A stretch of DNA of 58,022 bases from Phycisphaerae bacterium (GCA_016929015.1 JAFGJQ010000296.1:1-58022); one strand, 5' to 3'. Counted from the first letter of the stretch, positions 23,645 through 48,445 are shown. The notes: a model not told the origin generated them from the sequence alone. A program made the numbers and translations.

Positions 23645-23755
23645 GCGTGAAAACTCCTTGGCTGGGAGGAGAGATTGTGACGCAAGGAGGGCGGATGGGC
23701 AAGCCGCACGCGGCACCGGGAGGCCGGGCCCCCGCCGCACCCGTGCCCCGCACCG

Positions 23756-24703: not shown

Positions 24704-24735
24704 AACACCCACTCCGACGACCCGCTGCGGCCACG

Positions 24736-26049: not shown

Positions 26050-26132
26050 GAGGGAGCCCTCGTTCGCAGGTTTCCACGGTCAAACACCGGCGGGCATTAT
26101 AGGAGCCGTTTGCCCAACGGACCACCCATCGG

Positions 26133-26717: not shown

Positions 26718-26780
26718 ATTCCTGGATTCCGGGTAATCCTTCTTCGAATCCGGCCGGGGACGTCCCGCGTCGGGTGCTCG

Positions 26781-27719
26781 TCAGTCGCCGAGCAACTCAC
26801 GGAAGAAGGCCACAGTGCGGGTCAGTCCGTCCCGCAGGGAGATTTGTGGCTGCCAGCTCAGGCGCTCGCGGGCCCGTGTGGTATCGGCGCGACGGCGGAG
26901 GGGATCATCCGTGGGCAACGGGCGAGAGACCGTTTGCAGGGGCCGGCCCAGCGTTTCGGAGAGAAGCTGCAGCAAGTCCAGCATGGAGACCTCTTCGCTG
27001 CTGCCGACGTTCACGGGCTCGTGGGCGTCAGCGCCTTCGTACTGCATCAGGGCCATCATGCCGTCAATCTGGTCGTCGACGTAGCAGAAGCTGCGGGTCT
27101 GGCGGCCGTCCCCGTAGACCGTGACCGGCTCGCCCTGCAGGGCCTGCACGATGAAGTTGGACATTACGCGGCCGTCGCCCACCGCCATGCGCGGACCGTA
27201 GGTGTTGAAGATCCGCACAATACGGACGTCCACGCCGTTCTGCCGGTGGTAATCCGTCATGAGCGTTTCGGCGATTCGCTTGCCTTCGTCGTAGCAGCTT
27301 CGCGGGCCGATGGGATTGACGTTGCCCCAGTACGTTTCCTTCTGTGGGTGCTCCGCCGGATCTCCGTAGACCTCGCTGGTGGATGCCTGAAGGATGCGCG
27401 CCCGCACGCGCTTGGCCAGGCCGAGCATGTGCAGGGCGCCCAGCACGGACGTCTTGACGGTCTTGACCGGGTTGTACTGGTAGTGGATGGGAGAGGCCGG
27501 GCAGGCCAGATTGAAGATCCAGTCCACCTCCAGGAGAATCGGCTGCACCACGTCGTGACGGATAAATTCGAAGTGGGGATGGCCCAGAAGGTGCTCGACG
27601 TTTCTCCGATTGCCCGTAAACAGGTTGTCCACGCACAGCACGTCGTGCCCGTCGCGGATGAGCCGATCGCACAGGTGGCTGCCCAGGAACCCCGCTCCGC
27701 CGGTGACCAGAATACGCAT
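26781..27719 (-). CDS. UDP-glucuronate decarboxylase (UDP-xylose synthase)
   Basis: [45 protein letters not shown]. Confidence 0.93.
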
Positions 27720-27759
27720 GGAAGGCCTCGCTCTTCCGGACTTGCCGCCTGTCCGTCCT

Positions 27760-28872
27760 TCAGCGTTTCTTCCCGTAGAACTTCGCAATTTCGTCGATCA
27801 CACGATCGATGTCCTCTGTGGACAGCAGGGAATGCACGGGCAGCGCCAGCACGCGACGAGCCGCCTCTTCCGCCTTCGGGAAGCCGCCCGGCTTGTATCC
27901 CAATGCCGCAAAGCACGGCTGCATGTGCAGGGGCAGCGGATAGTACACTCCGCTGCCGATGCCCGCTGCCTTGAGGTGCGCCATCAGGTCGTCGCGCCGG
28001 TCGCAGAGAATCGTGTATTGATGGTACACCGAAACGTTGTAGTCGCGCACGCGCGGGGCCCGCACGGGCAGGTCGGCCAGGCGCTCGTTGTAGCGCTCAG
28101 CGTTGGCCTGCCGCCGGGCGGTCAACTCCTCCAGCCGGCGAAACTTCGCCAACAGCACTACGCCCTGGAATGCATCGAGACGGAAATTCCCGCCCACGTG
28201 TTCGTGCTCGTACTGCCGGGACTGGCCGTGGTTGCGCAGCACGACGCAACGATCCGCGAACGCCTCATCGTTGGTCAGGATCATGCCGCCGTCCCCGCAC
28301 GCCCCGAGGTTTTTCGTGGGATAGAACGACAGGCACCCCGCCTTTCCCATGGAGCACGCGCGCCGGCCGCGGTACGTCGCCCCGATGGCCTGGGCCGCGT
28401 CTTCCAGGACGGTCAGCCCGTGGCGATCGGCAACGTGCAGAATCTCGTCCATGTCGGCGCACTGGCCGAACAGGTGAACGGGCAGAATGGCCTTCGTCCG
28501 CGAGGTCACGGCGGCCTGTATCCGCGAAACGTCGATGTTGAACGTGTCGCTCTCAATGTCCACAAACACCGGCCGGGCCCCGACCCGGTGAATGCAGCCG
28601 GCCGTGGCGAAGAACGTGAACGGCGTGGTGATCACCTCGTCGCCCGGCCCGACGCCCGCGGCCATCAGGGCACAGAGAATGGCGTCGGTGCCGCTGCTCA
28701 CGGCGATGCCGCGGCGACACTGGGAGTGCTCCGCCAGCCGGCGCTCCAGCTCCTCGATCTGCGGCCCGAGCACGAAGCGGCAGGTCTCAAATACCGTCTG
28801 AATGCCTTCGAGAATTTCCTTGCGGAACAGGGCCGTTTCGCCGGCCAGGTCCAACAGTCCGATCGGTTTCAT
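27760..28872 (-). CDS. DegT/DnrJ/EryC1/StrS aminotransferase
   Basis: [27 protein letters not shown]. Confidence 0.94.
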
Positions 28873-29003
28873 GATGCGTTCCGTTATGCGATCCGTCGGC
28901 AGGCGGGCATCTGCTCATCGCCGGTCGTCGACGGATTTCGGGCCGCAGTATACGACCGCGGAGACGACCCGACAACGGCGCCGTCTGCGTCGAGGCGAAT
29001 GGA

Positions 29004-29104
29004 GACCGGCTGGAAAGCCGGTCCCACAGAGAGTCATGGAGAGACCGGCTGGAAAACCGGTTTCACCAAAAGGCCGGGAGAGGCGGGTTGAAAGCCGGCC
29101 CCCA
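29004..29104 (+). repeat. REP-A cluster (one intact and two degenerate copies)
   Basis: gaccggctggaaagccggtcccaca at 29004-29028; gaccggctggaaaaccggttt at 29043; gggttgaaagccggccccca at about 29086. Confidence 0.75.
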
Positions 29105-29176
29105 GGGAAGCGCCGTCGCCTTCGTCGGGGCCGGCGGGCGATCCGGATCGTGCCGGCCCAGATCCGTGCCGCGAGG

Positions 29177-31459
29177 TCAGGCGGGGCCGGAATCCTCGTT
29201 GTCTTCCTCGTCTCCGCGCGGGCGTCGGTCAAGGGCGGACGCCTTCTTCCCCGCCGGCAGCGCCCGGCCGGACCGGGACGCCTGGTCTTCCTCGGCCTGG
29301 TAGTCGTAGAAGGTGCGAAGCTGTTCGCGGAAGTAGCCGCCTCGTTGTGCCTGGGCGGCATTCAGCACGACGCCGAAAACGTGCGCATTCACGTGATGCA
29401 GCAGATTCAGGGCTCGCTGCGCCACGCCGCGCGAGTTCGCCTTCGCCCGCAGAACCAGCACGGTGCCGTCCACCATCGTCCCCAGGGCGGCGGCGTCGCT
29501 GGCCAGCAGAGCGGGCGGCGAGTCAAGCACCACGTGGTCATACCGGCGAACGGCCTCGTCCAGGAACTGCCGCATCATGGCGCTGGACAGCTGCTCCGCC
29601 GGGTTCGGGGGTGTAGGACCGCTCACCAGCACGTCCAGGTTTCCCGGCTCGGCCTTGCGGACATAGTCCTCCACGCGGCCGGCTCCGATCAGGATGTTGC
29701 TCAGGCCCGCGGGATTGTCCAGTCCGTAGATGCGGTGCAGGGCCGGTCGCCGGAAATTGGCGTCCACCACGAGCACGCGGCGTCCGCCCTGGGCCAGCGA
29801 AGCGGCCAGGTTGCAGGCAACGGTCGTCTTGCCGTCTTCGGGGTGCGGACTGGTCACCACCAGCGTGCGCTGCCGCTCCGCCGGAGCGCTGAACTGCAGG
29901 GCGGTCCGGATCGCCCGGAACGCCTCGGAGACCATGGAGCGGGGCAGATCCTGCACCACGGTCTCGATGCGGTCAATGTGAACCTCCTCGTCGTCGGCGT
30001 CGGGAACGGTGCCCAGAATGGGAACGCCCAGGTGGCGCACCACGTCGCGGGCGGTCCGCACCGAGGTGTCCATCAGCTCGAGCAGCACACCGATGCCGAC
30101 CGCCAGACCGACGGCGAGCATCACGCCGACCACGGCAAAGTACAATCGCGGAGCGCTGCGCTCCATCGGTTTGACCGGAGGCTGCCGCAACTCAATCTGG
30201 ACCGCGGACCGCTCCGCCACGATGCGCCGGAGCTCCCGCAGGTACTCGAGCGTCCTCTCTCGCGTGGTGGTGAGAAACACCAGTTCGTCCTGCATGCGGC
30301 GGTATTCCTGGAGCTTTCGTTCCACGTCCTGCTGCTGACTGCGAATGCCCTCCAGGCGTTCCTGGGCCAGGAACGTGGCGTGCTGCGAGTTGAACGTGGC
30401 CGTGCGGACCTGCTCGTGCTTCAGCTCCATGGCTTCCTGGAATTTCTGCTCCCGCATCCGCTGAAGCTGCTGCTGACTCTGTTCCAGGCGGTTGCGGAGG
30501 TTCTGCACGTCACGGTGATTCTCACCCAGTTTGGTGAGCTTGGCGATAACCTCTTGCTCCAGGGCCAGCGTCTGGGCAATCAACTGCTGCACCATCGGGT
30601 TCAGCTCGACCAGTTGCCGGTCTTCCGTCATGAATCTCTGGTAGTCGGGACTCTCGTAGATCTCGAGAAGGCCCTGCAGCTCCTGCGTCTGCAGTTCCAG
30701 TTCCGTGACCTCTTGCTGGGTCTGCAGCAACTGGGCCTCCAGCACGGTCGTCGCCTGCCGGTTCTGTCCCGGCAAGACACCCACGGGCAACGTACCGGCA
30801 AACATGGTGATCTGCTGGTTCTGGGCCTCGATCTGCTGGGTGAGCTCGCTGGCCTCGGCCTCCACCTTGGACAGTTCCGTGCGGTACAGCGCAGTCGCTC
30901 GCTCGCGGGCTTCGCTGAGATACTCGTCCACGACCTTGCGGACGATCTTGTGCGGGTCGTTCGGGCTGCGCGTGCCCATCGCCACGCGGATGTAGTTCGT
31001 GTCCCGGATCGGACCGGCCGACAGGCTATCGTCCAGCTCGTCCACCCGCTTGTCGGGTTCGGTCTGCTGGTACCAGTCCGTGCTCCGCACTTCCGGTGCC
31101 TGAAGGACTTTCATCAGAAGATTGGTTTGCTTGATGGACAGTGCCTGGTCCTGGAGGAAGCGGGTGTGCTCGTCCTCGTACACCTGGGGGGGGCGAAGCG
31201 ATGTGGCCTCCTTCGGAACACTCGAAATGCACTGAATGTAGGCTTCCGCGGAGTACGTCGGGTACTTGATGTACCAGAGCAGGAAGCCGCCGACGGCCGC
31301 AGCGCTCAGGAATATCGACAGGGCGACGATCAGCACGAGCCGGCTGCGGATCATGCGCAGAATGTCCGCCGGCGTCAGCCCGGCCGTCGCCGGCGCGCCG
31401 GGCGCGGCCAGGCCGGGCCTGGGCACGCGTTCCGATATGGTGGCAGGCAAGGTGGTCAT
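29177..31459 (-). CDS. Polysaccharide co-polymerase / BY-kinase (Wzc-like)
   Basis: Two TMs around coiled coils, EAFRAIRT, PEDGKT, VDANFRRP, DSPP, Tyr-containing tail GGYF..FYDY. Confidence 0.93.
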   Translation of the reverse strand: MTTLPATISERVPRPGLAAPGAPATAGLTPADILRMIRSRLVLIVALSIFLSAAAVGGFLLWYIKYPTYSAEAYIQCISSVPKEATSLRPPQVYEDEHTRFLQDQALSIKQTNLLMKVLQAPEVRSTDWYQQTEPDKRVDELDDSLSAGPIRDTNYIRVAMGTRSPNDPHKIVRKVVDEYLSEARERATALYRTELSKVEAEASELTQQIEAQNQQITMFAGTLPVGVLPGQNRQATTVLEAQLLQTQQEVTELELQTQELQGLLEIYESPDYQRFMTEDRQLVELNPMVQQLIAQTLALEQEVIAKLTKLGENHRDVQNLRNRLEQSQQQLQRMREQKFQEAMELKHEQVRTATFNSQHATFLAQERLEGIRSQQQDVERKLQEYRRMQDELVFLTTTRERTLEYLRELRRIVAERSAVQIELRQPPVKPMERSAPRLYFAVVGVMLAVGLAVGIGVLLELMDTSVRTARDVVRHLGVPILGTVPDADDEEVHIDRIETVVQDLPRSMVSEAFRAIRTALQFSAPAERQRTLVVTSPHPEDGKTTVACNLAASLAQGGRRVLVVDANFRRPALHRIYGLDNPAGLSNILIGAGRVEDYVRKAEPGNLDVLVSGPTPPNPAEQLSSAMMRQFLDEAVRRYDHVVLDSPPALLASDAAALGTMVDGTVLVLRAKANSRGVAQRALNLLHHVNAHVFGVVLNAAQAQRGGYFREQLRTFYDYQAEEDQASRSGRALPAGKKASALDRRPRGDEEDNEDSGPA

Positions 31460-32445
31460 GTTTGGCTTCCGCGGTCAGAGGCCGACGGCGCCGTTGCTAC
31501 GTCCGGCCGGCCTTGCGGTTCGTCTTCGTCCTCGGTTTCCTCAACGAAAAGATGGTCCATGGTGTATCCGATCAGGGCGAACAACCCGAGTGCAACCGGC
31601 AGCATGGCCAGGCCCAATAGTTCGTGCGTCGTTCCTTCGGCCCAGTCCCGGTGTCCGAACACGTGCAGGAACCCGGTCGTGGACACGCGGATGACGTTGC
31701 AGAACACCGCGATGGGAACGCAGCACACCAGCATGACGATCCGCTGCCAGAGCGGGCGGTCGCCCAGGTACGCCATGGCGGCGCCCAGCGTGATGAAGGC
31801 CATCATCAGCCGCATGCCGCTGCACGCCTCTTCCACGTTCAACTGCCCGGACGCGCCGCGGTACACGTAATCAATCACGACGCCCGACGTGTCCACGTGC
31901 AGATCGGGAATGAACGACCCGAGCAGAAAGGCCGAGACCAGCGACGCCAGCGTGCGGAGGGGCATGGTCAGGTCGACGTACACCCCGTCGGGAATCGGCA
32001 CCGCGAACAGGAGAAACACGATGGGAAACCAGACCACGCGCAGCACCTGCCTACCGCCGAGAAAGAGCACCATCGCGCCGATTGTCGCGACCAGCGAAAG
32101 GCTGCGGGGATATCCCATCGGCGTGATGAACAGATGCCAGAGATAGACCCCCAGCGAGCTCACCAGGACGATCAGCCCGAGCCAACTGGTCTGGGAACGG
32201 ACGCGGGCCAGACGCTCCCGCTGAAGGTGCAAGAAGTACAGGCTGAACAGCGGCACCAGCCAGCCGTGAGACCAATCTCCGTCCGTCCGCCACTTGTCCA
32301 CAATGCGATGCAGCTCCGGCCAGTACGCCAGGACCACGAGCAGGGCCAGAACGCCAGCCCGAATCCCGTGCGTCCAGATCGGCGTCCGTCCGACAGCCGT
32401 TGAAGGCGCGTGCATGGAACTGGAATCGGTTCGCACCACGGTCAT
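31456..32445 (-). CDS. Exosortase
   Basis: WSHGWLVP, EEACSGMR (Cys), NVIRV (Arg), THE (His), about 8 TMs. Confidence 0.92.
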   Translation of the reverse strand: MTVVRTDSSSMHAPSTAVGRTPIWTHGIRAGVLALLVVLAYWPELHRIVDKWRTDGDWSHGWLVPLFSLYFLHLQRERLARVRSQTSWLGLIVLVSSLGVYLWHLFITPMGYPRSLSLVATIGAMVLFLGGRQVLRVVWFPIVFLLFAVPIPDGVYVDLTMPLRTLASLVSAFLLGSFIPDLHVDTSGVVIDYVYRGASGQLNVEEACSGMRLMMAFITLGAAMAYLGDRPLWQRIVMLVCCVPIAVFCNVIRVSTTGFLHVFGHRDWAEGTTHELLGLAMLPVALGLFALIGYTMDHLFVEETEDEDEPQGRPDVATAPSASDRGSQT

Positions 32446-32454
32446 CGGGAAAGC

Positions 32455-34164
32455 CTACCGGAACAAGTTCGGGAACCGCTGCCTTGTCGTGTCGGTATAC
32501 ACCGGATTCGGCTGCGACCCGTAGGAGTCGATGTCCGCAAAGTTGCGGTCATACACAAACCCGAACCCGTAGGTCATACGGAACGCGTTGCGAATGACGG
32601 CCAGGAACGGCGCCACCGGGTGCGTGCCCACCACAACCAGGTCGTCCTTCTTCAGGAATACGTCCGCCTCCTTGCCCGCGAACATGGAATCCAGATTGAC
32701 CTGCTTCATCTCCTCGCGGTCGCCGTAGCGGCGGTAGATCGTGCAGCGGTCCGGCCACCCCAGCGGAGCGATGTTTCCCGCGGCCGCAACCGCCTGCTTG
32801 AGCGTGATCCGACGCCCGGTCAGGCTGTAGGCGCCCGGTCGGATGATCTGCCCCATGATGTAGTACTCGCCGACTTCGCCGGCGATCACGCGGATGGAGT
32901 CACCCGGCCGAATGATGATGTTCTGCCGCACGTCCCCGTTGCGCAGCGCGTCGCCGGAGATGCGAATGATCCGCTGCTCGACCTCACCGGCGATCTGACT
33001 CCAGTCCACGGACGGCTGGGCCTCCGGAGGGGGCGGCGGGAGCATCACAGGTCCCTCCGGCTCGGCGGTCGGGGGAGAATCGGGGGCCGTCGCCGTTGTG
33101 GGGGACGGCTTCACCTCAATCCATTTGCCGTTCAGGAAGATGAACCGGGGCTGCGCGGGTGGTTGAGCGGTCAGGTCCTCCGGTGCCGCCGGCACCGAAC
33201 TGGGTGCCGTGTCGATGGTGGATGCCGGCTCGACCGGCTCGGAGATTCCGGCAGGGGTCTGGGAATCGTGGCCGCGGAGAACGGCGTCAATGACTTCCCG
33301 CTCGGCGCCAGGCTCCCCCAACACCGGTCGCAGGGGGGACGGCTCCGCTGGGCTCGTCGTCGGCTCGTCCGGACGCGACGCTACGGACGGAGGAGCGTCG
33401 CCAAACCCGTCGGACATTGTGAGTTGGGCAACCGGAGCATTCCTGGCTTCGGCGGCCGCCGGCCCCATGTCCACATGGGACGGTAGCCCACCGAGGCCGT
33501 CGGGAGTCTGCGGGCGGGAATTCCGGAAGACGTATATCTCCGTCACCGTCTCCACCAGCCCACCCGCCTGGGCCAGGGCCTCGATCAGCGGAAAGTTGGG
33601 CCGGGCGATGGGGTACAAGGAAGGCTGGGCAACCGCACCGTAAACTGTGTAGCTCTGGCCTCGCTTGACGACCGGCTCCACCTGAACGTACGCGTCCAGA
33701 ACGATCTGGCGCTGGCGCAGAATGTCCTTCAACTCCGCTTCCAGTTCCGCCGCCGTCATCCCGGACGCGCGGATGCGACCGAGCACCGGCAGGGAGATCA
33801 TCCCCTCTTCATCCAGGAACACCTGAATGGATGTTTCGGTGTTGTCAATTACGAGATCCAGGATACGAACGTTCAGCGCGTCGCCGGGGCTCAGTCGGTA
33901 CACCACCGGACGCGGGATGATATCCTCCGGCGTGGGATCGGTCGCACCCGGAATGCCCGTCGGGGAGTCCTGGATGCTCAGTGACGTGCGAATCTCCATC
34001 GTGCCTTCGTCCAGGTAGTTGCCCACCTGGGAGGGATCCAGCCAACTGTTCCGGAAGCTGTAGCATCCGGCGGACAGACACGCCGCCGCCATACCGACCC
34101 AGACCAGGCAAAACCTGACCCGCTCGCCGTGCTGTCGACGGCGCGGGACTCGCGGCCAACGCAT
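32455..34164 (-). CDS. Polysaccharide export lipoprotein (Wza-like, SLBB repeats, long Pro-rich linker)
   Basis: Lipobox SAGC, YRLSPGD, GMISLPVLG, G-V-QP, ALAQAGG, second SLBB GQIIRPGAY. Confidence 0.88.
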   Translation of the reverse strand: MRWPRVPRRRQHGERVRFCLVWVGMAAACLSAGCYSFRNSWLDPSQVGNYLDEGTMEIRTSLSIQDSPTGIPGATDPTPEDIIPRPVVYRLSPGDALNVRILDLVIDNTETSIQVFLDEEGMISLPVLGRIRASGMTAAELEAELKDILRQRQIVLDAYVQVEPVVKRGQSYTVYGAVAQPSLYPIARPNFPLIEALAQAGGLVETVTEIYVFRNSRPQTPDGLGGLPSHVDMGPAAAEARNAPVAQLTMSDGFGDAPPSVASRPDEPTTSPAEPSPLRPVLGEPGAEREVIDAVLRGHDSQTPAGISEPVEPASTIDTAPSSVPAAPEDLTAQPPAQPRFIFLNGKWIEVKPSPTTATAPDSPPTAEPEGPVMLPPPPPEAQPSVDWSQIAGEVEQRIIRISGDALRNGDVRQNIIIRPGDSIRVIAGEVGEYYIMGQIIRPGAYSLTGRRITLKQAVAAAGNIAPLGWPDRCTIYRRYGDREEMKQVNLDSMFAGKEADVFLKKDDLVVVGTHPVAPFLAVIRNAFRMTYGFGFVYDRNFADIDSYGSQPNPVYTDTTRQRFPNLFR

Positions 34165-34472
34165 ACGCGGCTTCTGCGATGTGGGAATCGTATGCAACAT
34201 CTTTACCAGAATAGAATTAAAAGTTGCTTCCTCGTCACTCCGCGCCCGGGGGCTCCCTCCCGGCGGCGCGCCGCGCAACTCTGATCGTCGCCAATAGTTA
34301 TCGGCACTTCCCGTCGATATCATGCAGGCCCCGGCCCGGACCCACAGACGAGCCGGTTTCAGGGCGCGATCGGGTCGTATGGTACCGTATCTTCGTCCCG
34401 TGCGATAGGGGAGTTCGCGCGGACCTCCAGAATGCAACTCACAGGCCGGGGAAGGCGACGGACACAGGCACA

Positions 34473-34500
34473 TTGACGCCCGGAGGGTGCCGGGTACACT
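34473..34500 (+). promoter_or_regulatory. Putative sigma70-type promoter
   Basis: TTGACG-16-TACACT. Confidence 0.5.
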
Positions 34501-34596
34501 CCGTTGCAGGTACGAACTTCGATCCCGGGTCGGCCGCGCGGTGGCCCGCCGGGATCGGACAAAACCCAAACAACAACACAGGATTCAGGCCAGATC

Positions 34597-39357: not shown

Positions 39358-41691
39358 TTACAGCTCGACCGCCGGCGGACCGGTCAGGTGGGATTCAAAC
39401 ACCGCGTAGTCGGCCAGGTTCACGCTGCCGTCGCCGTTCAGATCGGCGCGGTTGGCAGGAAGCTGGCCGGGGCCGGCCGGGAACACGTCGATCTCCTTGA
39501 TGACGCTCGACACGTACGCGCTCGGAACGTTCAGGAACGTGCCCTCGATGTTCGCCACGGGCCGGAACACGAACCGCAGAGATGCCACATCCACGGCGAT
39601 CGGCCCGCCGGCCGGATCAAAGACCTGAGTGAGCGTTGCACCCCGATACAACGGGTCACCGGCCGGCCAGGCGTTCGACACGCCAAACGGCCCGGTCGTG
39701 ACACCGGCGGCCAGCACTTGATACGCGGCATCGCCGGCCGCCCGGTACTCCACGTCGTAGTGCTGGAACACGCGGCCGTTGCCCGGGTCCGTCTCGTTGG
39801 CGGCAAAAACGTGAATGTGGCTGATGTCGCGGGGCGGGGCGAAATCATAACGAACGGCCAGGGCCGGATTCAGGTAGTCGGCCAGAACGGCCTCTTCCTG
39901 GACTCCCTTCACGCCGTCGGTCAGGTCGGCCAGCCCGCCGGCGGTGCCGCCGGGCGTGGCGTCGTGGAAGCCGCCGGATTCCGCCACGCCGATCATGCCC
40001 GCCAGCACGTCATCGGCTGAAATGACCTGCGAAAGGCCCTCGACCGCGGCGGAGGATTCCCAGGCGGATTCCGCTTCCGGCAGCGCGGCACAGCCGTCGG
40101 GCGGCTCCGCCTCGCTCGTATAGCAGCGGGCGAGAATGGCGAAGTCGGCCAGGTCGGCGTCGCCGTCGCCGTCGAGGTCGGCCGGATTGGGCGGCGGAGG
40201 CGGGTCTTCGATGGGAACACCCCAAACCTCGAACTCGGGAATGCGGGCCCAGCCGTCCGCATAGTTTGCGTTCGTGATGTGCAGCCGGATGTAGCGAAGC
40301 TCCTTCGGCTCAGCAAAGGTCAGGGTGTTCAGCGGCTCCCGACTCGTGTTGGCGACGGAGAACTCCGTCGTCCAGGGGTCCAGGCCGTCCGGGCTGCTCT
40401 GGATGCTGAAGCCCTCGGTGTTGAGGTAGTCCGGCTCGTGGCCCATCTCGGCGTGGATGACGCGGAACTCACTCACCAGATACCGCCGCTGCAGGTCCAG
40501 CGCAAGCGTGTGATTGTCCACCGCGCTGGTGGACGCCCACTTGGTGAACGGCGTGCCGTCACAGGCCCGATCGGCCGTCTCGTTGGGGGCCACCTCGCCG
40601 CTGGCGGAAACGGCCGCTGCCAGGGCGGCGTTCTGGAGAGCCGGAACGGCCAGTCCCTGGTATGTGAAGTAGGACGGCTTCCTCGCGCCGCCGGCGTCCA
40701 CAACGCCGAACCATTCTTCCGTGCCGATGTGGAAGTCCTTGTAGCAGAACAGGAACGTCTTCTCCACGTAGGGCCCGTACTCCGGCGCGGACGGATACGC
40801 CAGCGGCTGGGCGATCGCATACGCGTGGTCGATGTACGTGGCCTGCAAGGCCTCGTTGGTGGACTGGCTGCCGCCGGGGTTGATGCTGGACGGCGCGGTG
40901 CCGGAGGTATTCCAGCCGTACTCCGTGAACCAGATGCGTTTGTAGTGATCGCCGAAGTGGTTCATCCGCCAGCGGACGCCCCACGTGGAGTTCAGGCCGC
41001 CGGCCAGGTAGGTGCTCGGGTCGGCCGTCCAGTGATATGGATGGAGGCCGAGTATATCGAACGGATAGATGCCGTGACTGCTCTTATAGCTGGAAAACGA
41101 CGAGGAGTTGTACGTGTCGCGCAGATACGTGGACGCGGGTGAGTAATAGCCGGTCAGTCCGCCCGAGATGACGGTGGCGTGCGGGTCGGCGGCTTTGATG
41201 GCCGGATAGGTGATGGCAAGCAGCCGGCCGAACTTCGCGGCGGAGATGGAACCCATCGAGTCTGGCTCGTTCCAGATCTCCCAGAACCGGATCGGGCCGG
41301 AGGGAAATCCCTTGTAGTGGTTGACGATCTCCACGGCCCGGTCGCGAAAGGAGTCTTGCCACGTGTCGTCGGCCCAGTCTGCCGATGAGGCGAAGGCTTT
41401 CGAGGAGTAGTCGATCAGCCCAAGCACCCCCAGCCCGTGTGCATTGGCGCGGTTCACGATCTCGTCGTAGTCGGCATAGTCGATGTAATCACCGCCGGTG
41501 TCGTGGATGAACTCCATGCGAATCCAGCGCACGCCGAGAGCCTCCAGGTCGGCGGCCACCGGCTCGGTGAACGTCACGTTGCTCTGCCAGACGGGAGCGC
41601 CGATGTTGATGCCAAAGTGCTCCGCGTAGTTCGTCTGGGCCGCGGCGGGAAGGCAGCCGGCCAGGAGAAGGAAGAGCACGGCCCAGATCAT
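39358..41691 (-). CDS. Secreted clan GH-A (GH5/GH39-like) hydrolase + F5/8-C (CBM32-like) domain + dockerin-like pair split by the shared domain
   Basis: Signal peptide from ATG 41691; WEIWNEP, IWFTEYGW; ACDG..TKW..RYIRL..IPEFEV; DLDGDGDADLAD and DLNGDGSVNLAD. Confidence 0.85.
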   Translation of the reverse strand: MIWAVLFLLLAGCLPAAAQTNYAEHFGINIGAPVWQSNVTFTEPVAADLEALGVRWIRMEFIHDTGGDYIDYADYDEIVNRANAHGLGVLGLIDYSSKAFASSADWADDTWQDSFRDRAVEIVNHYKGFPSGPIRFWEIWNEPDSMGSISAAKFGRLLAITYPAIKAADPHATVISGGLTGYYSPASTYLRDTYNSSSFSSYKSSHGIYPFDILGLHPYHWTADPSTYLAGGLNSTWGVRWRMNHFGDHYKRIWFTEYGWNTSGTAPSSINPGGSQSTNEALQATYIDHAYAIAQPLAYPSAPEYGPYVEKTFLFCYKDFHIGTEEWFGVVDAGGARKPSYFTYQGLAVPALQNAALAAAVSASGEVAPNETADRACDGTPFTKWASTSAVDNHTLALDLQRRYLVSEFRVIHAEMGHEPDYLNTEGFSIQSSPDGLDPWTTEFSVANTSREPLNTLTFAEPKELRYIRLHITNANYADGWARIPEFEVWGVPIEDPPPPPNPADLDGDGDADLADFAILARCYTSEAEPPDGCAALPEAESAWESSAAVEGLSQVISADDVLAGMIGVAESGGFHDATPGGTAGGLADLTDGVKGVQEEAVLADYLNPALAVRYDFAPPRDISHIHVFAANETDPGNGRVFQHYDVEYRAAGDAAYQVLAAGVTTGPFGVSNAWPAGDPLYRGATLTQVFDPAGGPIAVDVASLRFVFRPVANIEGTFLNVPSAYVSSVIKEIDVFPAGPGQLPANRADLNGDGSVNLADYAVFESHLTGPPAVEL

Positions 41692-41896
41692 CGGGTGGCA
41701 TGCCCGTTCCGTCGATGGCCGGGTGGCATGCCCGTTTCCGCCGAAGGCGGATCGGGCATGGCGGAACGCGTCTGACGCCCGGTGATCCGAACATGCCCGA
41801 GGCTGAAGCCTACGGGCATGGCACCCCCGCGAATCCATCCGCCGGTCATCTGCGCTCGATGAGTTCATAAAGCCTCCGTGGTTGCTCGGCGATCAA

Positions 41897-41973
41897 GACC
41901 GGCTGGAAAGCCGGTCCCACACCGGAGGCCGGTCCCACACCGGCACCGGTCCCACAATACCGCCGGTCCCACA
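41897..41973 (+). repeat. REP-A plus three tandem 3' half-copies (CCGGTCCCACA x4)
   Basis: Full copy at 41897-41921; half-copies at 41929, 41946, 41963. Confidence 0.85.
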
Positions 41974-41978
41974 GAAGG

Positions 41979-44474
41979 CTACGACGGGCCAAGCAGCGCC
42001 GCTTCGAACAGCAGGTAGTCGGCCGTGTCCACCGCGTCATCGCCGGTGAAGTCGGCGATGTTGCCGGTCAGCGGGCCGGTGTACTCGTACACGTCGATTT
42101 CCTTGATGACGCTCGACTCGAAGGCCTCGGCATACCCGTCCTGGTCGCCCGGCTCGCCGGGGTCAAACGGGTCTCGAAACCCGTTGTCCGTGCCCGACAC
42201 CGGGTAGAACGTGAAACGCAGGCTGTCCACACTCACCGCGATCGGGTCGGAAGCGGTACTGCAAACCGTGGTCCGCGAGTACGTGTAAACGCTCGGGTTC
42301 GTATCGCCGTAGTCTCCCGCCCGGGCCTTGGTGGCCAGTGACTGGTAGGTCGCGTCGTTCGGCTGGGAATACTCCACGTCGTAGTTCTGAAAGACCCGGC
42401 CAAAGGGATTGGCCGAGAACACCTTGATCTCGTCCAGGTGCCGCGGCGGGTCGAAATCGTACCGAACCTGCAAAGCCCGATTCGCCGGGTCCGTGTTGCC
42501 CGGAAAATCCGCCAGCACCGCTTCCTCGGCCACTCCCACCACGCCGTCCGTCAGGTCGGCCAGTCCGCCCGACACACCGCCGGGTGTCGCGGAGTGAAAC
42601 CCGCCGGCCTCAACGATTCCGACCCGCCCCTGCAGCAGGTCCGTGCCGGAAAGCTCGCCCTGGAGGACGGCCATCGACTGGCTGCTCAGACTGCCGAGCA
42701 CCTCCACCGGGGCCACACCGGCCGGCGGGGCCTCGCAGCCGGCGGGCGGACTGCCGACGGGCCCGGAATAGCACGCCGCGAAAATCGCGAAGTCGGCCAG
42801 GTCGATCCGGTCGTCCGCGTTCAGGTCGTACTTATTCGGGCTCACCGCGATGTAGTCTTCGCGGGTCTTCGTATCGGAACCCCCGCCACCGGTCACCGTC
42901 AGGCTGACCGTGAACGTGCCGGCCTGCGTGTACTGATGGGAAGGGTTGGCGGCGGGGCTGGTCTGGCCGTCGCCGAAGCTCCAGAGGTACGAGGCCACCG
43001 GGCCGGCCGACGTACTGGTGAACTGGACGGTCAGCGGCAGAACGCCGGCCGTGGGGCTGGCCGTGAAGTCTGCCTGAACGGCCTTGACGGTGATGTACCC
43101 GCTCTTGGTCTCGGTATCACTGCCGCCGGGGCCGGTGACGGTAAGCGAGACCGTGTAGATTCCGGGAGTGTTGTAGAGGTGCGAGGGGTTCTGCTGGGCG
43201 CTGGTGCCGGTGTCCCCGAAGGTCCAGGCGTGGGTGTCGATCGTGCCCATCGATTCGTCGGTGAAGTTCACTGTGAACGGCGACAAACCCACGAGCGGGC
43301 TGGCCGAGAAGGCTGCCGAAGGCGGGCCGGTCACGCCGCACTGGGCGGCAAAGGCGTACCACGCGGGCATGTAGTTGCCGATGCCGCGGGTCAGGCCCCA
43401 GTCGCCGTTGGGGTCGCCGCTGTTGTACTGGTACCACATGCCGGTGGCGATGTAGCTCTGGGTGCGCATCCAGTTGAAGGACGCGGTCAGGTTGTCCGCC
43501 TTGCCCTGGTCGCCCACGCCTTCGGTGGTCCAGCCGAACTCCGTCACCAGGATTTTCGAGCCGTCTCCGCGGAGAAGCTGCTCCTGGTGGATGCCACGCT
43601 GGTACACGCTGCCGCTGACGTTGTTGAAATACTTGGCCAGTTCCGACGTGCTGACCGCGCTGCCCTGCTGAATGTAGAAGTGATAGCCGAAGTAGTCCCA
43701 CGGGTACCGCCGGCCGGTCGGGTTCAGCGGGTCCGTTTCGAAGGCGTTCCAGATATCCGTCTGGAGATACGTGTCGTGTGCATAGGCGGTGGCCGATCCG
43801 GGGTTGCTGCCGCCGATGTCGTGCGCGAACAGCCCGCCGCTGACCAGTGAGACGCCGTTTGCGCTGAAGAAATTGACCCCGCCCTGTTCGATGCACTCCT
43901 TGTAGGTTTCGGCCATCAGGTTTGCGAAGATGCGCGGCCAGATATACGAGCAGCCGGGGTTAAGCGGGTCGATGTTCGGATCCTGCGACCAGCAGCTCGG
44001 TTCGTTCCACAACTCGTACAGCTTGACGTCGTCCTTGTAGCGGTTGATGAGCATGTACGCGACGGACGCGTAATGCGTGACATACCCGTTCAGGCCCGTG
44101 GTGTTGTAGTTCTCGTTCCACTGGGCCTGGCCGTAGCCGGCGACCGTTTCGTTCGAAAAGACGGCCACCACGTCCAGGTTGTTGTTTCGGGCGTTGGCGA
44201 TGATCTGGTCATACTTGGCCAGGCGGGTGGCGTCCCAGCCGGGCAGGGCGTCAATGAAGTTGATGCGCACCAGGTGGCATCCGGAGGCCGCGATGTCGGC
44301 CGCCACCGCATTGGTGAACAGGATGGTTGATCCGCTGATCGGGGCCCCGGCGTTCACGCCCACGAAGGGTGGGTCGGCCATCGCCGGGAGACTCAGCAGG
44401 GATGAAAAAGCCACAGTCCAGGCAGCCGCCCAAGCGGCGCGGCGGCCTCGCGTTCGGTTCCCATCGCCAGTCAT
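41979..44474 (-). CDS. Secreted clan GH-A hydrolase + 2 PKD domains + dockerin-like pair split by the shared domain
   Basis: YELWNEP, ILVTEFGW; WTFGD/WSFGD...NPSH.Y...G.YTVSLTV twice; DLNADDRIDLAD and DFTGDDAVDTAD. Confidence 0.87.
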   Translation of the reverse strand: MTGDGNRTRGRRAAWAAAWTVAFSSLLSLPAMADPPFVGVNAGAPISGSTILFTNAVAADIAASGCHLVRINFIDALPGWDATRLAKYDQIIANARNNNLDVVAVFSNETVAGYGQAQWNENYNTTGLNGYVTHYASVAYMLINRYKDDVKLYELWNEPSCWSQDPNIDPLNPGCSYIWPRIFANLMAETYKECIEQGGVNFFSANGVSLVSGGLFAHDIGGSNPGSATAYAHDTYLQTDIWNAFETDPLNPTGRRYPWDYFGYHFYIQQGSAVSTSELAKYFNNVSGSVYQRGIHQEQLLRGDGSKILVTEFGWTTEGVGDQGKADNLTASFNWMRTQSYIATGMWYQYNSGDPNGDWGLTRGIGNYMPAWYAFAAQCGVTGPPSAAFSASPLVGLSPFTVNFTDESMGTIDTHAWTFGDTGTSAQQNPSHLYNTPGIYTVSLTVTGPGGSDTETKSGYITVKAVQADFTASPTAGVLPLTVQFTSTSAGPVASYLWSFGDGQTSPAANPSHQYTQAGTFTVSLTVTGGGGSDTKTREDYIAVSPNKYDLNADDRIDLADFAIFAACYSGPVGSPPAGCEAPPAGVAPVEVLGSLSSQSMAVLQGELSGTDLLQGRVGIVEAGGFHSATPGGVSGGLADLTDGVVGVAEEAVLADFPGNTDPANRALQVRYDFDPPRHLDEIKVFSANPFGRVFQNYDVEYSQPNDATYQSLATKARAGDYGDTNPSVYTYSRTTVCSTASDPIAVSVDSLRFTFYPVSGTDNGFRDPFDPGEPGDQDGYAEAFESSVIKEIDVYEYTGPLTGNIADFTGDDAVDTADYLLFEAALLGPS

Positions 44475-44572
44475 GGATGCCTCCAGGGGTGCGTTTCAGA
44501 TACCTGCGAGCGGCCGGCGGGCACACCTGTGTTCCCGCGGCCGAACACGTGCAGTCATTACAGTCTAGAGTC

Positions 44573-44624
44573 TGTGGGACCGGCTTTCTCGCCCCGGCGA
44601 GTCGCCTGCGGAGACCAGCCGGTC
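44573..44624 (-). repeat. REP-A with 27-bp element B inserted in its loop
   Basis: Minus strand gaccggctgg|tctccgcaggcgactcgccggggcgag|aaagccggtcccaca. Confidence 0.88.
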
Positions 44625-44652
44625 TTCTCCGGATTCCCGCTTCCGTACAGTC

Positions 44653-44692
44653 AAAAGGCCGCGGGGTGACGCATCGTCGTCCCCGCGGCCTT
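44653..44692 (-). terminator. Intrinsic terminator after the PEP-CTERM gene
   Basis: aaggccgcgggg / ccccgcggcctt stem, with TTTT on the minus strand. Confidence 0.7.
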
Positions 44693-44743
44693 GATTCATG
44701 CGCAACCGTGCGAGCGCAAACGATGCTGCGCCGCAGGAAGTCC

Positions 44744-45505
44744 CTAGCGACGGCGCAGGACCGCCAGACCGCCGAGAACCAGCAGGGCCAGCGTGGCCGG
44801 CTCGGGGATCACGTCGATTTCCCGGATACCCGGGCCCTCGAACGCAGCGTTGTTCCCGTCCGTGTCCCGCGGGTCGCTGGGATCGAACGGATCCCATAAG
44901 CCACCCGTGGTCTGGCCCACGTCGTACAGCTTGAACCGCAGCATCACGCAGTCTTCGATCAGTAAGCCCTTGGCGCCGTCGTACACGTACGTCCCCGTCC
45001 TCTCGACAAACTCCGTGCTACCGTTCCACACACCAAAGTTCGTGGAGTGCACCTGATCGAGCAGCGTGTACACGGTCGCGTCGCCATCCACCATGTACTC
45101 GATGTCGTAGTTGTGGTAGCTGCGACTGTTGTAGCCGTCCGGGTTCGATGCATAGACGCGAATCTCGCCCACATTCTGCGGGACTGCAAAGTCATACCGC
45201 ATCGTCAACGCCGGTGTTCCGCTGACATTCGGCGGGGCCGACGCATAGTCCTTCAAGACCGCCGCGCCAGCGCCCCAGCCGGTGCCCCAGGTCCCGTCCG
45301 TCAGGTCCGCCGGAGTGCCAAGGCCTCCAATGAAACCGCCCTGCTCCTGCGTTGCGGTAGTGAACGCCTGCTCGAGCAGGTCGCCCGCGACGACGCTCTT
45401 GATCAGGGATCCGCCGTAGTCCGCCGAGTCCTTTGTGTACGTGGGTGCGGCCGCCGCGATGGTGGCAAGCGCCAGCAAACAAACACCTGTCAGAAACACT
45501 CTCAT
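44744..45505 (-). CDS. PEP-CTERM surface protein made of a single copy of the shared domain
   Basis: Signal peptide; C-terminal IPEPATLALLVLGGLAVLRRR; AAGGAGGAGG RBS. Confidence 0.92.
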   Translation of the reverse strand: MRVFLTGVCLLALATIAAAAPTYTKDSADYGGSLIKSVVAGDLLEQAFTTATQEQGGFIGGLGTPADLTDGTWGTGWGAGAAVLKDYASAPPNVSGTPALTMRYDFAVPQNVGEIRVYASNPDGYNSRSYHNYDIEYMVDGDATVYTLLDQVHSTNFGVWNGSTEFVERTGTYVYDGAKGLLIEDCVMLRFKLYDVGQTTGGLWDPFDPSDPRDTDGNNAAFEGPGIREIDVIPEPATLALLVLGGLAVLRRR

Positions 45506-46393
45506 GATCCAACCTCCTCCTTACCTAGGTAAGCAAAACGCACCGCCCCGAGGCCGGCCTTGCCTGGGACAGGCAGACTTCACGTGCCTGATGACGACGT
45601 GTCACCGGTGCCAGAGCCCATGACTTCGCAACGACAAGACCTGTCACAGATGCGTCGCTGCTTTCCCATACTCCAAACCGTTTCATACGAGAGAGAACGC
45701 GCACTTCTTCGCCCGCCTGACACCTGGTTCTGCGGTCGGCGGGTGCGACCTGCAGTGATTCGCACATGGCCCCCAAAGCTGTCCGATATTTTAACTCTGC
45801 GCGGCGGCTGACGCAAGCATATCGCGCCGAATGGACACGTGTATCAACAGTCTGCCGACGTCTGAACGGCCCTTCGTGCGGGGCGCCCGGAGCATCTTTC
45901 TTCTGCGAAAACGCCGCGACGGAGAGTGAGCCGGGAAACGCTCCATCTCCGTGGACCCGCCGACCTTGCCATGCCCCCTTCGGGACGAGTGTGACCGGAA
46001 ACGGTCAGGAAACCGGCGTCGAACCCGCTCTTGTGGTCCTTTGTGGCACTCGGTGTCGCTCCTTTCGCTTCGGGCCGACGCAATCCCGTGACAGGTTACG
46101 ATCAAAGCGGAGAACGCCGGCGGCGGAGAACGGCGGGCATGGTGCGTTTTTTCTGGCTCCACAGGCCCGGCAGACTCTGGCCTTTGGCCCTCAAGGCCCG
46201 ATATACTTTGTAGGAAGGACGAATGCTGCCTCGCAATGACACTGCCTGAGGCGGCGTGCGTTCGCCGCCGGGACAAACGGTTGCAGCGATGCGCGCAACT
46301 GACTAGAATGTACCGGTGTGGCAGGCTCGGGCCGCGGACATTCCCGGTCCACCGGCAAACACGCCCGACAATCCAACGAGAAGGTGGTACTCC

Positions 46394-47299
46394 ATGTGCA
46401 GCACATCCGTTCGCAGACGACCCGGGGGTTTCACGCTGATCGAACTGCTGGTGGTGGTGTCGATCATCGCCCTGCTCATCTCGATCCTCCTGCCTTCGCT
46501 GAAGAAGGCGCGGGACCAGGCCAAGCTGACGCTCTGCGCCACGAGGCTGCACGACATCGGCGTCTCCCTCATGAGCTACAGCCACAACTACAACCGCTTC
46601 CCAACGCAGAATTCGCTGGGCACAACGTCCACCGACCCGGTGGACCGATCGATGCGCGAGGGAGCCGGCTTCTGGACGTACGCCGTGCACAAGGAACTCG
46701 CCTCATATATGGGCGGGCTTCGGGCAAACGTCAATGGCGAGCGAACGATGGCCCACGAGGTGTTCTACTGCCCGTTCGCGCCGGCCGAGAAGGTCCACAA
46801 TTCGCAGCGCCTTTCCGGCCCCGGTACGGGCTACGGGCTGGAGGGAGCCGAGGACGTGTACCTGCACATCGGGTACACGTACGCTGGCGGCATGCACGAA
46901 GTGAGCAACGATCCGGTCAAGAAGCAGGGCGTGTGGCCGGGGACCAGCGATGATTTGAAGAACCACATCCTCAAGAAGCGCCGGTTCTACGTGAAAACGG
47001 AGCCGGACTCCACGCGCGTGCTGATGGCCGACGCGGTTGTGGCGTGGAAGGGCGGGCCGGGAACTGGCATGTGGCGCATCAATCACGGTGACGGGTGGGA
47101 CAAGAACATCCCGGCAGTGTCCGCTTTCCGGGCCCCGCGGATCGATGGCGCGAGCGTGATGTACGGCGACGGGCACGTGGAGTGCAAGAAGACGTCCTAC
47201 TTCAGAGAAGTGGCGAACGTAACGGGCGGGACGATGGGACACCAAAGTGCAAAGGGAAACGCGACCCTGATCTATGGTAATGATTTCCTCTGGTGGTAA
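46394..47299 (+). CDS. Prepilin-type N-terminal cleavage/methylation protein (DUF1559-like)
   Basis: GFTLIELLVVVSIIALLISILLPSLKKAR..A....C, FYCP, MYGDGHVE. Confidence 0.9.
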   Translation: MCSTSVRRRPGGFTLIELLVVVSIIALLISILLPSLKKARDQAKLTLCATRLHDIGVSLMSYSHNYNRFPTQNSLGTTSTDPVDRSMREGAGFWTYAVHKELASYMGGLRANVNGERTMAHEVFYCPFAPAEKVHNSQRLSGPGTGYGLEGAEDVYLHIGYTYAGGMHEVSNDPVKKQGVWPGTSDDLKNHILKKRRFYVKTEPDSTRVLMADAVVAWKGGPGTGMWRINHGDGWDKNIPAVSAFRAPRIDGASVMYGDGHVECKKTSYFREVANVTGGTMGHQSAKGNATLIYGNDFLWW

Positions 47300-47329
47300 C
47301 TCACTTCATCAAAGGAGGCTGGAAGGAAT

Positions 47330-48445
47330 ATGAACGCACAACGATTCTCCTGGTGTGTCGCCGTTCTGGTGCTGGCCATGAGCGGGCTGGCGGCCCAGGC
47401 AGACGTGATGACCCGCTACGAGTTGGAGTACAATTCTGACGATCTGAGCCACGGCGTCAGCGCGACCGACCTGATCAACGGGTTCGGAGTGAATACGGAC
47501 GGAACGCCGCTCGATCAGGGCATCAACGAGAGCGCCATCGCACCGTACACGGATGGCATAATCGACCTCACTCCCGGCCAGGAGGTGTTCTCGTGGCTGA
47601 TGAAATCCACCGTGGACTGTCTGCCGCTGAATGAGGGGCAGCCGAGCGACGGGTTCCACCCTCTGACGGGCAACGGAGATATGCCCGACCTGGTGGACGG
47701 CGTGGCCGGCCCGGTGCTCAAGAGTGTGCTGCGAGACTATGGCCGGGCCTCGCTGGTGGTGCGCTACGGCTTCTCCCAGCCGACGGACATCGGCTACATC
47801 CGCGTGATCGGCGGCAACCTGCTCAACCGCGATGGCCGGGTGTTCCACAACTACGACGTGTACTACCGGCAGGGGGACTGTGGTGACGGGATCTGCCCGG
47901 CCCACGGCGACCTGTTCTCCGGCATGATCGGGTTCGATGAGTTCGTGCCCCTGGCTCTGGACGTCTCGACCGGCCCGGTCGGCGTGGGAAACACGGGCCT
48001 CTGGCAGGGCTCGTTGACGGAGGTCATGGATCGGGACGCCAAGGTCATGATCCCCGGCTGCACGGACCTGCGGTTCGTGTTCTACTGCGTGGACAACACA
48101 ACCAGTTTCTTCCTGGATCCGTGGCAGGGAAACGCGCAGGAGTCGCCGCAGTACCAGATGGACTGCCCCGATGTGGAAGGTCGGGACACCGACGGCCGGC
48201 AGAAGGCATTTGTAGGCCCGATTATCAAGGAAATCGACGTCTTCAGTCCGGAAGACCACTTTGACTTTGCCCGCGGCGACATCGACTACGACGGCGATCG
48301 CGACATGGTGGACTTCGCAGCGTTCCAGGGTTGTTTCGAGGCGGACATCAACACCAACGGTTGCTTCCGGTTCGACTACACCCAGAACAACGCGATCGAT
48401 GCGGATGACCTGCCCGGCTTCGCGGCCGACATGACCGGCCCGTGA
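47330..48445 (+). CDS. Secreted protein: shared domain (with insertions) + intact C-terminal dockerin-like pair
   Basis: Signal peptide, AAGGAGG RBS; DLVDG, VRYGF, RVFHNYDVYY, IKEIDV; GDIDYDGDRDMVDF...FDYTQNNAIDADD..MTGP. Confidence 0.85.
   Translation: MNAQRFSWCVAVLVLAMSGLAAQADVMTRYELEYNSDDLSHGVSATDLINGFGVNTDGTPLDQGINESAIAPYTDGIIDLTPGQEVFSWLMKSTVDCLPLNEGQPSDGFHPLTGNGDMPDLVDGVAGPVLKSVLRDYGRASLVVRYGFSQPTDIGYIRVIGGNLLNRDGRVFHNYDVYYRQGDCGDGICPAHGDLFSGMIGFDEFVPLALDVSTGPVGVGNTGLWQGSLTEVMDRDAKVMIPGCTDLRFVFYCVDNTTSFFLDPWQGNAQESPQYQMDCPDVEGRDTDGRQKAFVGPIIKEIDVFSPEDHFDFARGDIDYDGDRDMVDFAAFQGCFEADINTNGCFRFDYTQNNAIDADDLPGFAADMTGP

Follow-up and report, generated by a model that had tools for sequence, protein, structure and literature searches.

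The stretch analysed here, hereafter the window, is a 58,022-nucleotide sequence from a Phycisphaerae bacterium (GCA_016929015.1, JAFGJQ010000296.1:1-58022). Our subject is a cluster of five genes at 39358-48445, four of which encode secreted proteins that share a domain of about 200 amino acids (aa). All five genes were judged to be real, with third-position GC (GC3) of 0.81-0.87. They form two divergently oriented groups with an 888-bp gap between them, and their products are referred to as P0001 to P0005:

39358-41868, minus strand: P0001, a secreted multidomain hydrolase (translated open reading frame, ORF), with a glycoside hydrolase (GH) clan GH-A catalytic region, an F5/8C domain, a calcium loop, the shared domain and a second calcium loop, in that order
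41979-44474, minus strand: P0002, a secreted hydrolase (translated ORF), with a GH5-like clan GH-A catalytic region, two PKD domains, a calcium loop, the shared domain and a second calcium loop, in that order
44744-45505, minus strand: P0003 (253 aa), with a signal peptide, the third copy of the shared domain and a PEP-CTERM anchor (44744-44806)
45506-46393: divergent intergenic region of 888 bp between P0003 and the prepilin-like gene
46316-47299, plus strand: P0005, a prepilin-type, DUF1559-like protein whose database form, P0176, starts at 46394
47330-48445, plus strand: P0004, with a signal peptide, the shared domain with insertions, and a tail with two calcium-loop motifs and a conserved Cys pair

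The copies of the shared domain lie as follows:

39472-40065, minus strand: copy 1, in P0001 (profile E 5.7e-82)
42078-42704, minus strand: copy 2, in P0002 (profile E 1e-98)
44801-45445, minus strand: copy 3, in P0003 (profile match)
47399-48259, plus strand: copy 4, in P0004, with insertions (profile match)

We aligned the four segments with MAFFT (39469-40071, 42075-42707 and 44801-45448 on the minus strand, 47399-48259 on the plus strand) and found 42 columns without variation; the other copies are 36-52% identical to the first. The motifs DL[TV]DG, RY[DG]F, [HN]YD[VI], LRF and I[KR]EIDV are collinear in P0001-P0004, and D70 is invariant among the four. BLASTP, run on three of the six possible copy pairs, gave E 1e-22 between the PEP-CTERM copy and that of P0001, 6e-20 between the PEP-CTERM copy and that of P0004, and 2e-53 between the two hydrolase copies. 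Judging from these pairwise values (6e-20 to 2e-53), the four copies are homologous and do not resemble each other by chance. A profile of the four copies found exactly four matches in the organism's own 5.8-Mb, 92%-complete assembly (E 5.7e-82 to 1e-98; 23 candidates scored), and no fifth copy was detected there. A sequence-only reading of the region had proposed one domain in four secreted proteins on the strength of such ordered motifs, every one of which is present in its stated order; alignment, BLASTP and profile bear this out, and its domain coordinates agree with the profile-derived ones. The motif D.DG...AF, which it had seen in three copies, is indeed found in three, and the copy that lacks it (39472-40065) has a deletion there.

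Conservation extends to distant members of the family, in which D42 and R128 are invariant and T69, G71, D86, E229 and D231 are conserved in at least 90%. Family 32 carbohydrate-binding modules (CBM32), such as those in the structures of galactose oxidase and sialidase, have a structural metal site to which an Asp close to the first strand and a Glu on the last one contribute. The conserved polar and charged positions of the shared domain suggest a functional or metal site and not a bare spacer.

The family is a real one for which there is no named model. At E <= 1, Pfam-A gave no match to the shared segment except for DDR1-2_DS-like on P0002 (12 bits, E 0.15), NCBIfam gave none on the shared domain of P0001-P0004, its choice-of-anchor models included, and PF00754 (cut-off 28.2 bits) found nothing on the four regions; these results agree with the earlier description of the domain as unnamed. 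A search of PDB sequences with the four-copy profile returned a single match, by chance, to ribosomal protein L15 (E 1.6). An exhaustive HMMER scan of 1.84 billion representative proteins, by comparison, recovered 254 clusters at E <= 0.001, of which 159 remain at a threshold of 1e-10 and 32 at one of 1e-30, and a related-locus search with P0003 as the only query returned two loci. In one family cluster with names (P0075, 41 members), the eight named members are all called 'hypothetical protein'. We did not find a description of the domain in the literature searched on PEP-CTERM and dockerin proteins in Planctomycetes and on DUF1559 in Phycisphaerae, although one may exist.

An AlphaFold2 model of P0003, built from an 18-sequence alignment, is all-beta, with a predicted local distance difference test score (pLDDT) of 83.1 and a predicted template modelling score of 0.81. 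Foldseek found 49 matches to it in the PDB at E <= 0.001. CBM32 modules came at the top, led by 4uap (E 2.7e-6, TM-score 0.65 on the target) and followed by 5zu6, 4a42, 7blg and 7d29, with APC10/DOC and further F5/8C-type domains below them. VIA-align superposed the model on 4a42_B, the CBM32-6 module of CpGH89, with Z 12.9 and a root-mean-square deviation of 2.6 Å over 125 of 126 residues. Because of these Foldseek and VIA-align matches, we place the modelled domain in the galactose-binding-like (discoidin/F5-8C/CBM32) jelly-roll superfamily as a divergent member. The sequence-only reading had pointed to an F5/8-C-like jelly roll, and the motif order of the domain does resemble, in our estimation, that of F5/8C; the predicted fold now upholds that suggestion, as do weak matches in other family members. 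Of 45 members, seven have F5_F8_type_C matches at E <= 1, the best of them at 1.1e-5, four match F5_F8_type_C_2 and one matches DDR1-2_DS-like. Among 20 members scanned singly, P0139 alone showed F5_F8_type_C, at 19.1 bits against a cut-off of 28.2. Together these matches point to a weak sequence bridge from the family to F5/8C. Neighbours in the ESM Atlas are small PEP-CTERM proteins of similar size and tail (scores 0.96-0.97), look-alikes that come with neither alignment nor E-value; one of their clusters has F5_F8_type_C on 42% of its members and another has DDR1-2_DS-like on 98%.

Both large proteins of the cluster are predicted clan GH-A hydrolases, as had been suggested from their sequence. 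The catalytic part of P0001 has no Pfam match, and its best PDB sequence match is PslG (E 5.7e-8, 35 bits, query residues 24-262); a regular F5_F8_type_C domain follows at residues 420-546 (E 1.4e-13). P0002 matches Cellulase (GH5) at E 1.5e-4 and 21.8 bits, below the cut-off of 23.5, has nothing below E 0.07 among PDB sequences, and carries two PKD domains (PKD_4, E 2.9e-34). The motifs WNEP and TE[YF]GW, which we take to hold the acid/base and nucleophile glutamates about 110-155 residues apart, occur in P0001 (WNEP 199-202, TEYGW 315-319) and P0002 (WNEP 156-159, TEFGW 311-315) with the spacing expected of this clan. Among the 56 long members of the family, the domains that accompany the shared domain include Glyco_hydro_cc (5), Dockerin_1 (5), F5/8C (4), DUF5123 (4), GH5 (2), CBM_4_9 (2), PKD_4 (2), GHL10 (1) and NAGPA (1), as well as VanY and beta-helix domains. 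The database form of P0001 has 777 aa and starts at M60 (coordinate 41691). The signal peptide of this form (P0001 residues 60-78, window 41677-41691) holds a lipobox-like LLAGC, so that this protein may be a lipoprotein instead of a freely secreted enzyme.

What follows the shared domain varies from protein to protein. We classified tails by script over 148 listed representatives, leaving out eight without the C-terminal end of the domain and sorting the remaining 140. Calcium-loop tails of dockerin/EF-hand-like type make up 35 of the 140, short ends with [DE]W.[LM][YF] 27, PEP-CTERM tails 22, PEP-CTERM plus a calcium loop 8, PEP-like tails without the basic cluster 5, and others 43. By eye, the 43 others include nine PEP-CTERM tails, whose starts had been swallowed by the domain envelope, six calcium-loop tails and three of W.LY type. 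The tail after the domain is at most 120 residues long in 118 of the 140 (median 30.5), so that the shared domain is usually the last globular module ahead of a short, anchor-like tail. The anchor of P0003 (residues 233-253) scores above the cut-offs of PF07589 (20.9 bits vs 20.7) and TIGR02595 (20.5 vs 16), confirming the PEP-CTERM tail first noticed in the sequence, and a canonical PEP-CTERM (...PEP..LLRRR) closes each of the five stand-alone orthologues. The [DE]W.[LIM][YF] terminus is a further observation: about 30 of the 140 representatives end 10-18 residues past the domain in this way (...DWSLY, ...DWTMY, ...EWMLLD), examples being P0038, P0056, P0075, P0131, P0152 and P0164, and the P0075 cluster comes from metagenome-assembled genomes of Candidatus Omnitrophica / Hinthialibacteria. 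We know of no named motif like it, and it could serve as a C-terminal signal, specific to a lineage, for sorting or strand completion.

The calcium loops of the two hydrolases bracket the shared domain:

40141-40179, minus strand: P0001 calcium loop (half-dockerin-like), DLDGDGDADLADF, upstream of copy 1
39406-39444, minus strand: P0001 partner calcium loop, DLNGDGSVNLADY, downstream of copy 1
42789-42827 and 42015-42053, minus strand: P0002 calcium loops (motif positions), bracketing copy 2

Thus P0001 and P0002 have one dockerin-like loop-helix on each side of the domain. This bracketing, together with a C..TG....P.GC Cys pair after the first loop, is found in nine of nine aligned rows that cover the N-terminal side, and the shared domain may be inserted within a dockerin-like unit. 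An AlphaFold model of the last 287 residues of P0001 is of too low quality to tell whether the loops pair (mean pLDDT 62.3, long stretches below 50); at this low confidence, its prediction is limited to a helix behind each loop. In P0004 and its four orthologues, by contrast, the two loops stand in tandem with a conserved Cys pair, the tail being kept in all four orthologues. Dockerin_1 (PF00404) passes its cut-off in the cluster on P0001 alone (residues 808-828, 24.3 bits vs 22.9), where it covers profile positions 2-22 of 57 only; it scores 15 bits on P0002 and has no match on P0004 although two loop motifs are visible. The description of P0004 as dockerin-tailed holds at the level of the loop motifs only; neither Dockerin_1 nor any other Pfam family matches the protein. 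A calcium loop occurs near the shared domain in 41 or more of the 152 family proteins. Such tails are generic in this genome, which has 43 other dockerin-like matches. The cohesin model PF00963 found nothing in the 92%-complete genome, in a search whose controls responded.

P0005 carries a prepilin-type N-terminal motif (PF07963, 30.8 bits vs 21.2; TIGR02532, 26.3 vs 16.3). The earlier assignment to DUF1559-type prepilins stands as regards the N-methyl motif; PF07596 (DUF1559) itself stays below threshold on P0005 (20.4 bits vs 23.3, profile positions 2-44 of 268), though many orthologues carry it in precomputed database annotation. The close relatives of P0005 comprise about 50 clusters (E <= 1e-43, 39-90% identity), after which there is an abrupt drop to generic prepilins at E 1e-17. 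DUF1559-type prepilin-like genes are numerous and unexplained in planctomycetes. In a survey of 41 relatives, the window's own genome (G000) included, an orthologue of P0176 (E <= 1e-30) occurs in six, one copy each, always adjoining the orthologue of P0004. All six are among the seven genomes with the shared domain, and the seventh is G402, in which the contig ends within the cluster. This co-occurrence is a consistent pattern and not statistical proof, because the genomes are kin from three genera. A predicted complex of P0176 (residues 36-301) and P0004 (residues 24-371) scored 0.00, which is uninformative for or against binding. The divergent gap ahead of the prepilin-like gene is also long in four relatives, 733-989 bp (L040 9680-10412, L042 8321-9309, L043 8234-9036, L045 8710-9563); among the five genomes it contains no conserved block, and it has no Rfam match. 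A 157-aa ORF inside the gap of the window (45766-46239) is probably not a gene, as it fails the GC3 filter.

Seven of the 41 relatives have the shared domain; leaving aside the window's own genome, it is present in four of five from the genus and in six of 24 from the family. In G000, G402, G403, G404 and G406, wherever contigs allow, no more than 17 kb holds all the copies, and gene order is the same in G403, G404, G406 and G419. In this order, the orthologues of P0004 and P0005 stand on one strand, followed by the 733-989-bp gap and, on the other strand, by the stand-alone copy, a GH39/GH10-like protein with CBM9 and at least one domain-bearing hydrolase. Besides the GH39/GH10-like protein, clusters of the relatives contain F5/8C proteins and alpha-amylase, GxGYxYP and NAGPA enzymes. 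The flanks outside the genus are unrelated (PFOR subunits, an Rnf-like gene, a sugar kinase, a transposase), so that the cluster behaves as a unit. Deployment of the domain in three forms, as an anchored stand-alone copy, as an enzyme appendage and as a calcium-loop-tailed copy, recurs in the relatives just as had been read from the window, and homologues show recurring links to GH, PEP-CTERM and prepilin genes alike. A lack of such links had been named as grounds for rejecting the sequence-only reading, which on this point withstands the check.

Several details differ among the relatives. The GH39/GH10-like protein with its CBM9-like domain is 830-910 aa long and follows the PEP-CTERM gene (L040 11214-13856, L042 10208-12940, L043 10137-12638); the window and G402 are without this gene. 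G404 also encodes a 1156-aa domain-bearing protein, followed by a transposase. In G404 (L040 13949-15037) and G403 (L042 15875-17014), a URO-D (uroporphyrinogen decarboxylase-like) gene is located within the cluster or on its border; the cluster of the window has no such gene. G402 resembles the window down to its fumarase, RmlD-like and HEAT-repeat neighbours, and its contig ends at the PEP-CTERM gene. G050, a distant member of the same phylum, has three domain ORFs of 255-316 aa on three contigs, C58, C17 and C23 (L006, L012, L014). Because these copies are on separate contigs, clustering may characterize the Phycisphaeraceae lineage rather than the whole family.

Elsewhere in the window is a complete-looking locus for exopolysaccharide synthesis and protein sorting:

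22667-34569: exopolysaccharide/exosortase locus, encoding three sugar epimerase/dehydratases, UDP-glucose dehydrogenase, a NusG-like paralogue (26133-26717), a DegT aminotransferase, a Wzz-domain P-loop kinase, an exosortase and a Wza/SLBB exporter

In this genus, the locus lies about 5 kb from the cluster, and in the window a fumarase gene and an RmlD-like gene stand between the two. The exosortase (EpsH, 31456-32445; PF09721, E 3.8e-57) is present as claimed, but it is not specific to the cluster: the genome has 39 PEP-CTERM matches, and the neighbourhood is not kept outside the genus. With so many potential clients, the exosortase is a shared service and not part of the cluster. No SusC/SusD-type genes were found among the five cluster proteins or the scanned neighbours in the window. 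A 679-aa protein at 13584-15623 (minus strand) matches Glycogen_syn (PF05693, E 1.4e-257), a family that we take to be described mainly from eukaryotic-type glycogen synthases.

We consider it somewhat likelier than an even chance that the shared domain is a divergent CBM32/discoidin-like module that binds glycan non-catalytically in a surface glycan-processing cluster. The predicted carbohydrate-binding module would bring every secreted product of the cluster to one glycan. These products would be a pair of retaining glycosidases of clan GH-A and two stand-alone copies, one attached to the surface via its PEP-CTERM/exosortase anchor, the other bearing a calcium-binding tail of two loops and encoded right after a dedicated prepilin-like protein. 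The domain is normally the last in the chain before the terminal tail and would thus act near the attachment point, like the 'choice-of-anchor' domains of Haft. The homology, fold class, architectures, clustering and co-occurrence of the domain are results of the analysis, while sugar binding is what we infer; the sugar itself may belong either to a glycan used as food or to exopolysaccharide made by the cell itself. Much of the sequence-only interpretation survives in this view, including the unnamed family, its CBM32-like fold, its modular deployment and the recurring gene links; its analogies to a cellulosome and to a polysaccharide utilization locus (PUL) are not supported.

A number of results weigh against the glycan-binding interpretation. 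In VIA-align, the Z of 12.9 for CBM32 is nearly tied by BIRC6 (12.7), the human PP25 product 1tvg (12.6), allantoicase (12.6) and IFT25 (12.5), with APC10/DOC (11.9) and SUN (11.7) about one Z below, and the modelled fold alone cannot part lectins from protein-binding relatives. The C-terminal domains of GH29 fucosidases are also within one Z of CBM32. Profile comparison by hhalign of the family alignment gave E 0.077 with the F5/8C domain of P0001 and E 0.06 with a three-sequence F5/8C alignment from the same genome, neither of them significant, although the aligned strands look sensible. An iterated hidden Markov model of the P0001 F5/8C domain, run over the ORFs of the genome, collected three domains and never recruited the shared domain. 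The window copies reach no Pfam model cut-off, and the domain exceeds CBM32 by about 50 residues. As for distribution, the relatives represent three genera of one family, so that their co-occurrence counts do not stem from independent events. Among 401 genomes sampled evenly from the phylum, six have a match, of which only G050 and G369 are convincing, a soft measure of rarity given that six first-look candidates were scored per genome.

The glycan might instead be one of the cell's own. The module would then bind an envelope glycan or exopolysaccharide, the enzymes would be retained in the matrix as PslG-type trimmers, and the PEP-CTERM copy would tether that matrix. This is a sub-case of glycan binding with another target, and we regard it as possible but unlikely. 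The closest solved relative of the P0001 catalytic domain is PslG, the hydrolase of the Psl exopolysaccharide, but the match is modest at 35 bits. The exosortase/Wza/Wzz-kinase/nucleotide-sugar locus is only some 5 kb away in this genus and the shared domain always stands beside the anchor; against this, fumarase and RmlD-like genes part the two loci in the window, and no exosortase locus is adjacent in G403, G404, G406 or G419, where the cluster is flanked by unrelated housekeeping genes. Loss of the exosortase in Nostoc cuts cell-associated polysaccharide while soluble polymer is still made (PMC12188702). The mix of GH39/GH10-like, alpha-amylase, GxGYxYP and NAGPA proteins in the relatives is more typical of foraging. 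It is distinctly improbable, in our view, that the module serves protein-protein assembly, whether homotypic or heterotypic, and joins the four surface proteins in the manner of APC10 DOC, IFT25 or SUN. DOC/APC10, IFT25, BIRC6 and SUN fit the model as well as CBM32 does (Z 11-12.7), and the copies of one genome are encoded together. The bacterial, secreted and enzyme-linked setting, however, is that of carbohydrate-binding modules, and the single stand-alone PEP-CTERM copies on separate contigs of G050 suit a lectin better than a dedicated partner. Any physical complex of these proteins is likewise something we infer.

Two further explanations concern the ends of the proteins. If the domain were a structural spacer or stalk beside the anchor, with no ligand, its constant position just ahead of the terminal tail would be accounted for; yet the stand-alone copies contain nothing besides this domain, and polar and charged positions are conserved in distant members, from the invariant D42 and R128 to T69, G71, D86, E229 and D231, and we rate this explanation as very unlikely. 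Hardly credible is assembly of the dockerin-tailed proteins by a cohesin-dockerin scaffold, as in a mini-cellulosome or 'planctosome'. Dockerin-type calcium loops are present in P0001, P0002 and P0004 and near the domain in no fewer than 41 of the 152 family proteins, and a planctosome with true cohesins has been proposed for peptidases in another family, in other freshwater planctomycetes (PMC6461901). Here, however, no cohesin was found with PF00963 in a genome that is 92% complete, which leaves the cellulosome analogy of the sequence-only reading unsupported. Dockerin_1 reaches its cut-off on P0001 alone and over half a profile, the loops of the hydrolases are parted by an entire shared domain, and the 43 dockerin-like matches elsewhere in the genome show that such loops are not peculiar to the cluster.

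We also considered a bolder scheme, improbable as it is, in which the cluster is a pilin-borne lectin system peculiar to some Phycisphaeraceae. P0005, a dedicated pseudopilin, would either make up a short fibre or cap it, and P0004 would ride on this fibre as a glycan-capturing tip. At the cell surface, the PEP-CTERM copy P0003 and the two hydrolases, which share its module, would take over the polymer so caught and cleave it. If so, the module would found a new carbohydrate-binding family, and P0005 would provide the first function for a member of the large, unexplained planctomycete expansion of DUF1559. A physical prepilin link would bear on how planctomycetes capture polymers. P0005 is thus one of the few prepilin-like proteins with identifiable partners, as its presence tracks the module in the genomes searched, save for G402 with its contig end.

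Planctomycetes are major degraders of complex glycans that lack such well-understood systems as PULs and cellulosomes, and little is known of the way in which they keep enzymes and substrates at their surface. Under the glycan-binding interpretation that we prefer, the shared domain is a candidate new carbohydrate-binding family of about 254 representative clusters, which could be modelled and assayed. It also offers a natural experiment in alternative anchoring, the same module being combined with PEP-CTERM, calcium-loop or [DE]W.[LM][YF] tails. Should it prove to be one more discoidin-type CBM, the gain would be better annotation.

Among known systems, the shared domain is most readily compared with CBM32/F5-8C (PF00754, clan GBD), with which it has in common a predicted beta-sandwich jelly roll and its use as a C-terminal appendage of glycoside hydrolases; it differs in having about 200 residues against 130-150, with extra N-terminal strands and insertions. 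Small discoidin/DS-like PEP-CTERM proteins have the same size and tail as the window's PEP-CTERM copy, which however matches neither the F5_F8_type_C nor the DDR1-2_DS-like Pfam model. In its behaviour the domain corresponds to what NCBIfam, as we understand the naming, calls 'choice-of-anchor': one domain is followed by a PEP-CTERM, calcium-loop or [DE]W.[LM][YF] tail in different proteins, although no NCBIfam model matches it.

At the level of the cluster, the secreted planctomycete enzymes and adaptors with dockerin-like calcium loops recall cellulosomes and the planctosome, from which the present system differs in that no cohesin was found and that the loops of the enzymes are split around a domain. 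The catalytic domain of P0001 aligns to PslG and carries the clan GH-A motifs, but PslG is without such C-terminal modules and is encoded inside its own biosynthesis operon, whereas the exopolysaccharide locus here is separate and not syntenic in other genera. The cluster shares with the PULs of Bacteroidota, with which the sequence-only reading had compared it, a compact arrangement of secreted glycoside hydrolases and predicted non-catalytic, surface glycan-binding proteins. In place of the SusC/SusD pair that would be needed to sustain that analogy, it has PEP-CTERM and calcium-loop anchors and includes a prepilin-like gene.

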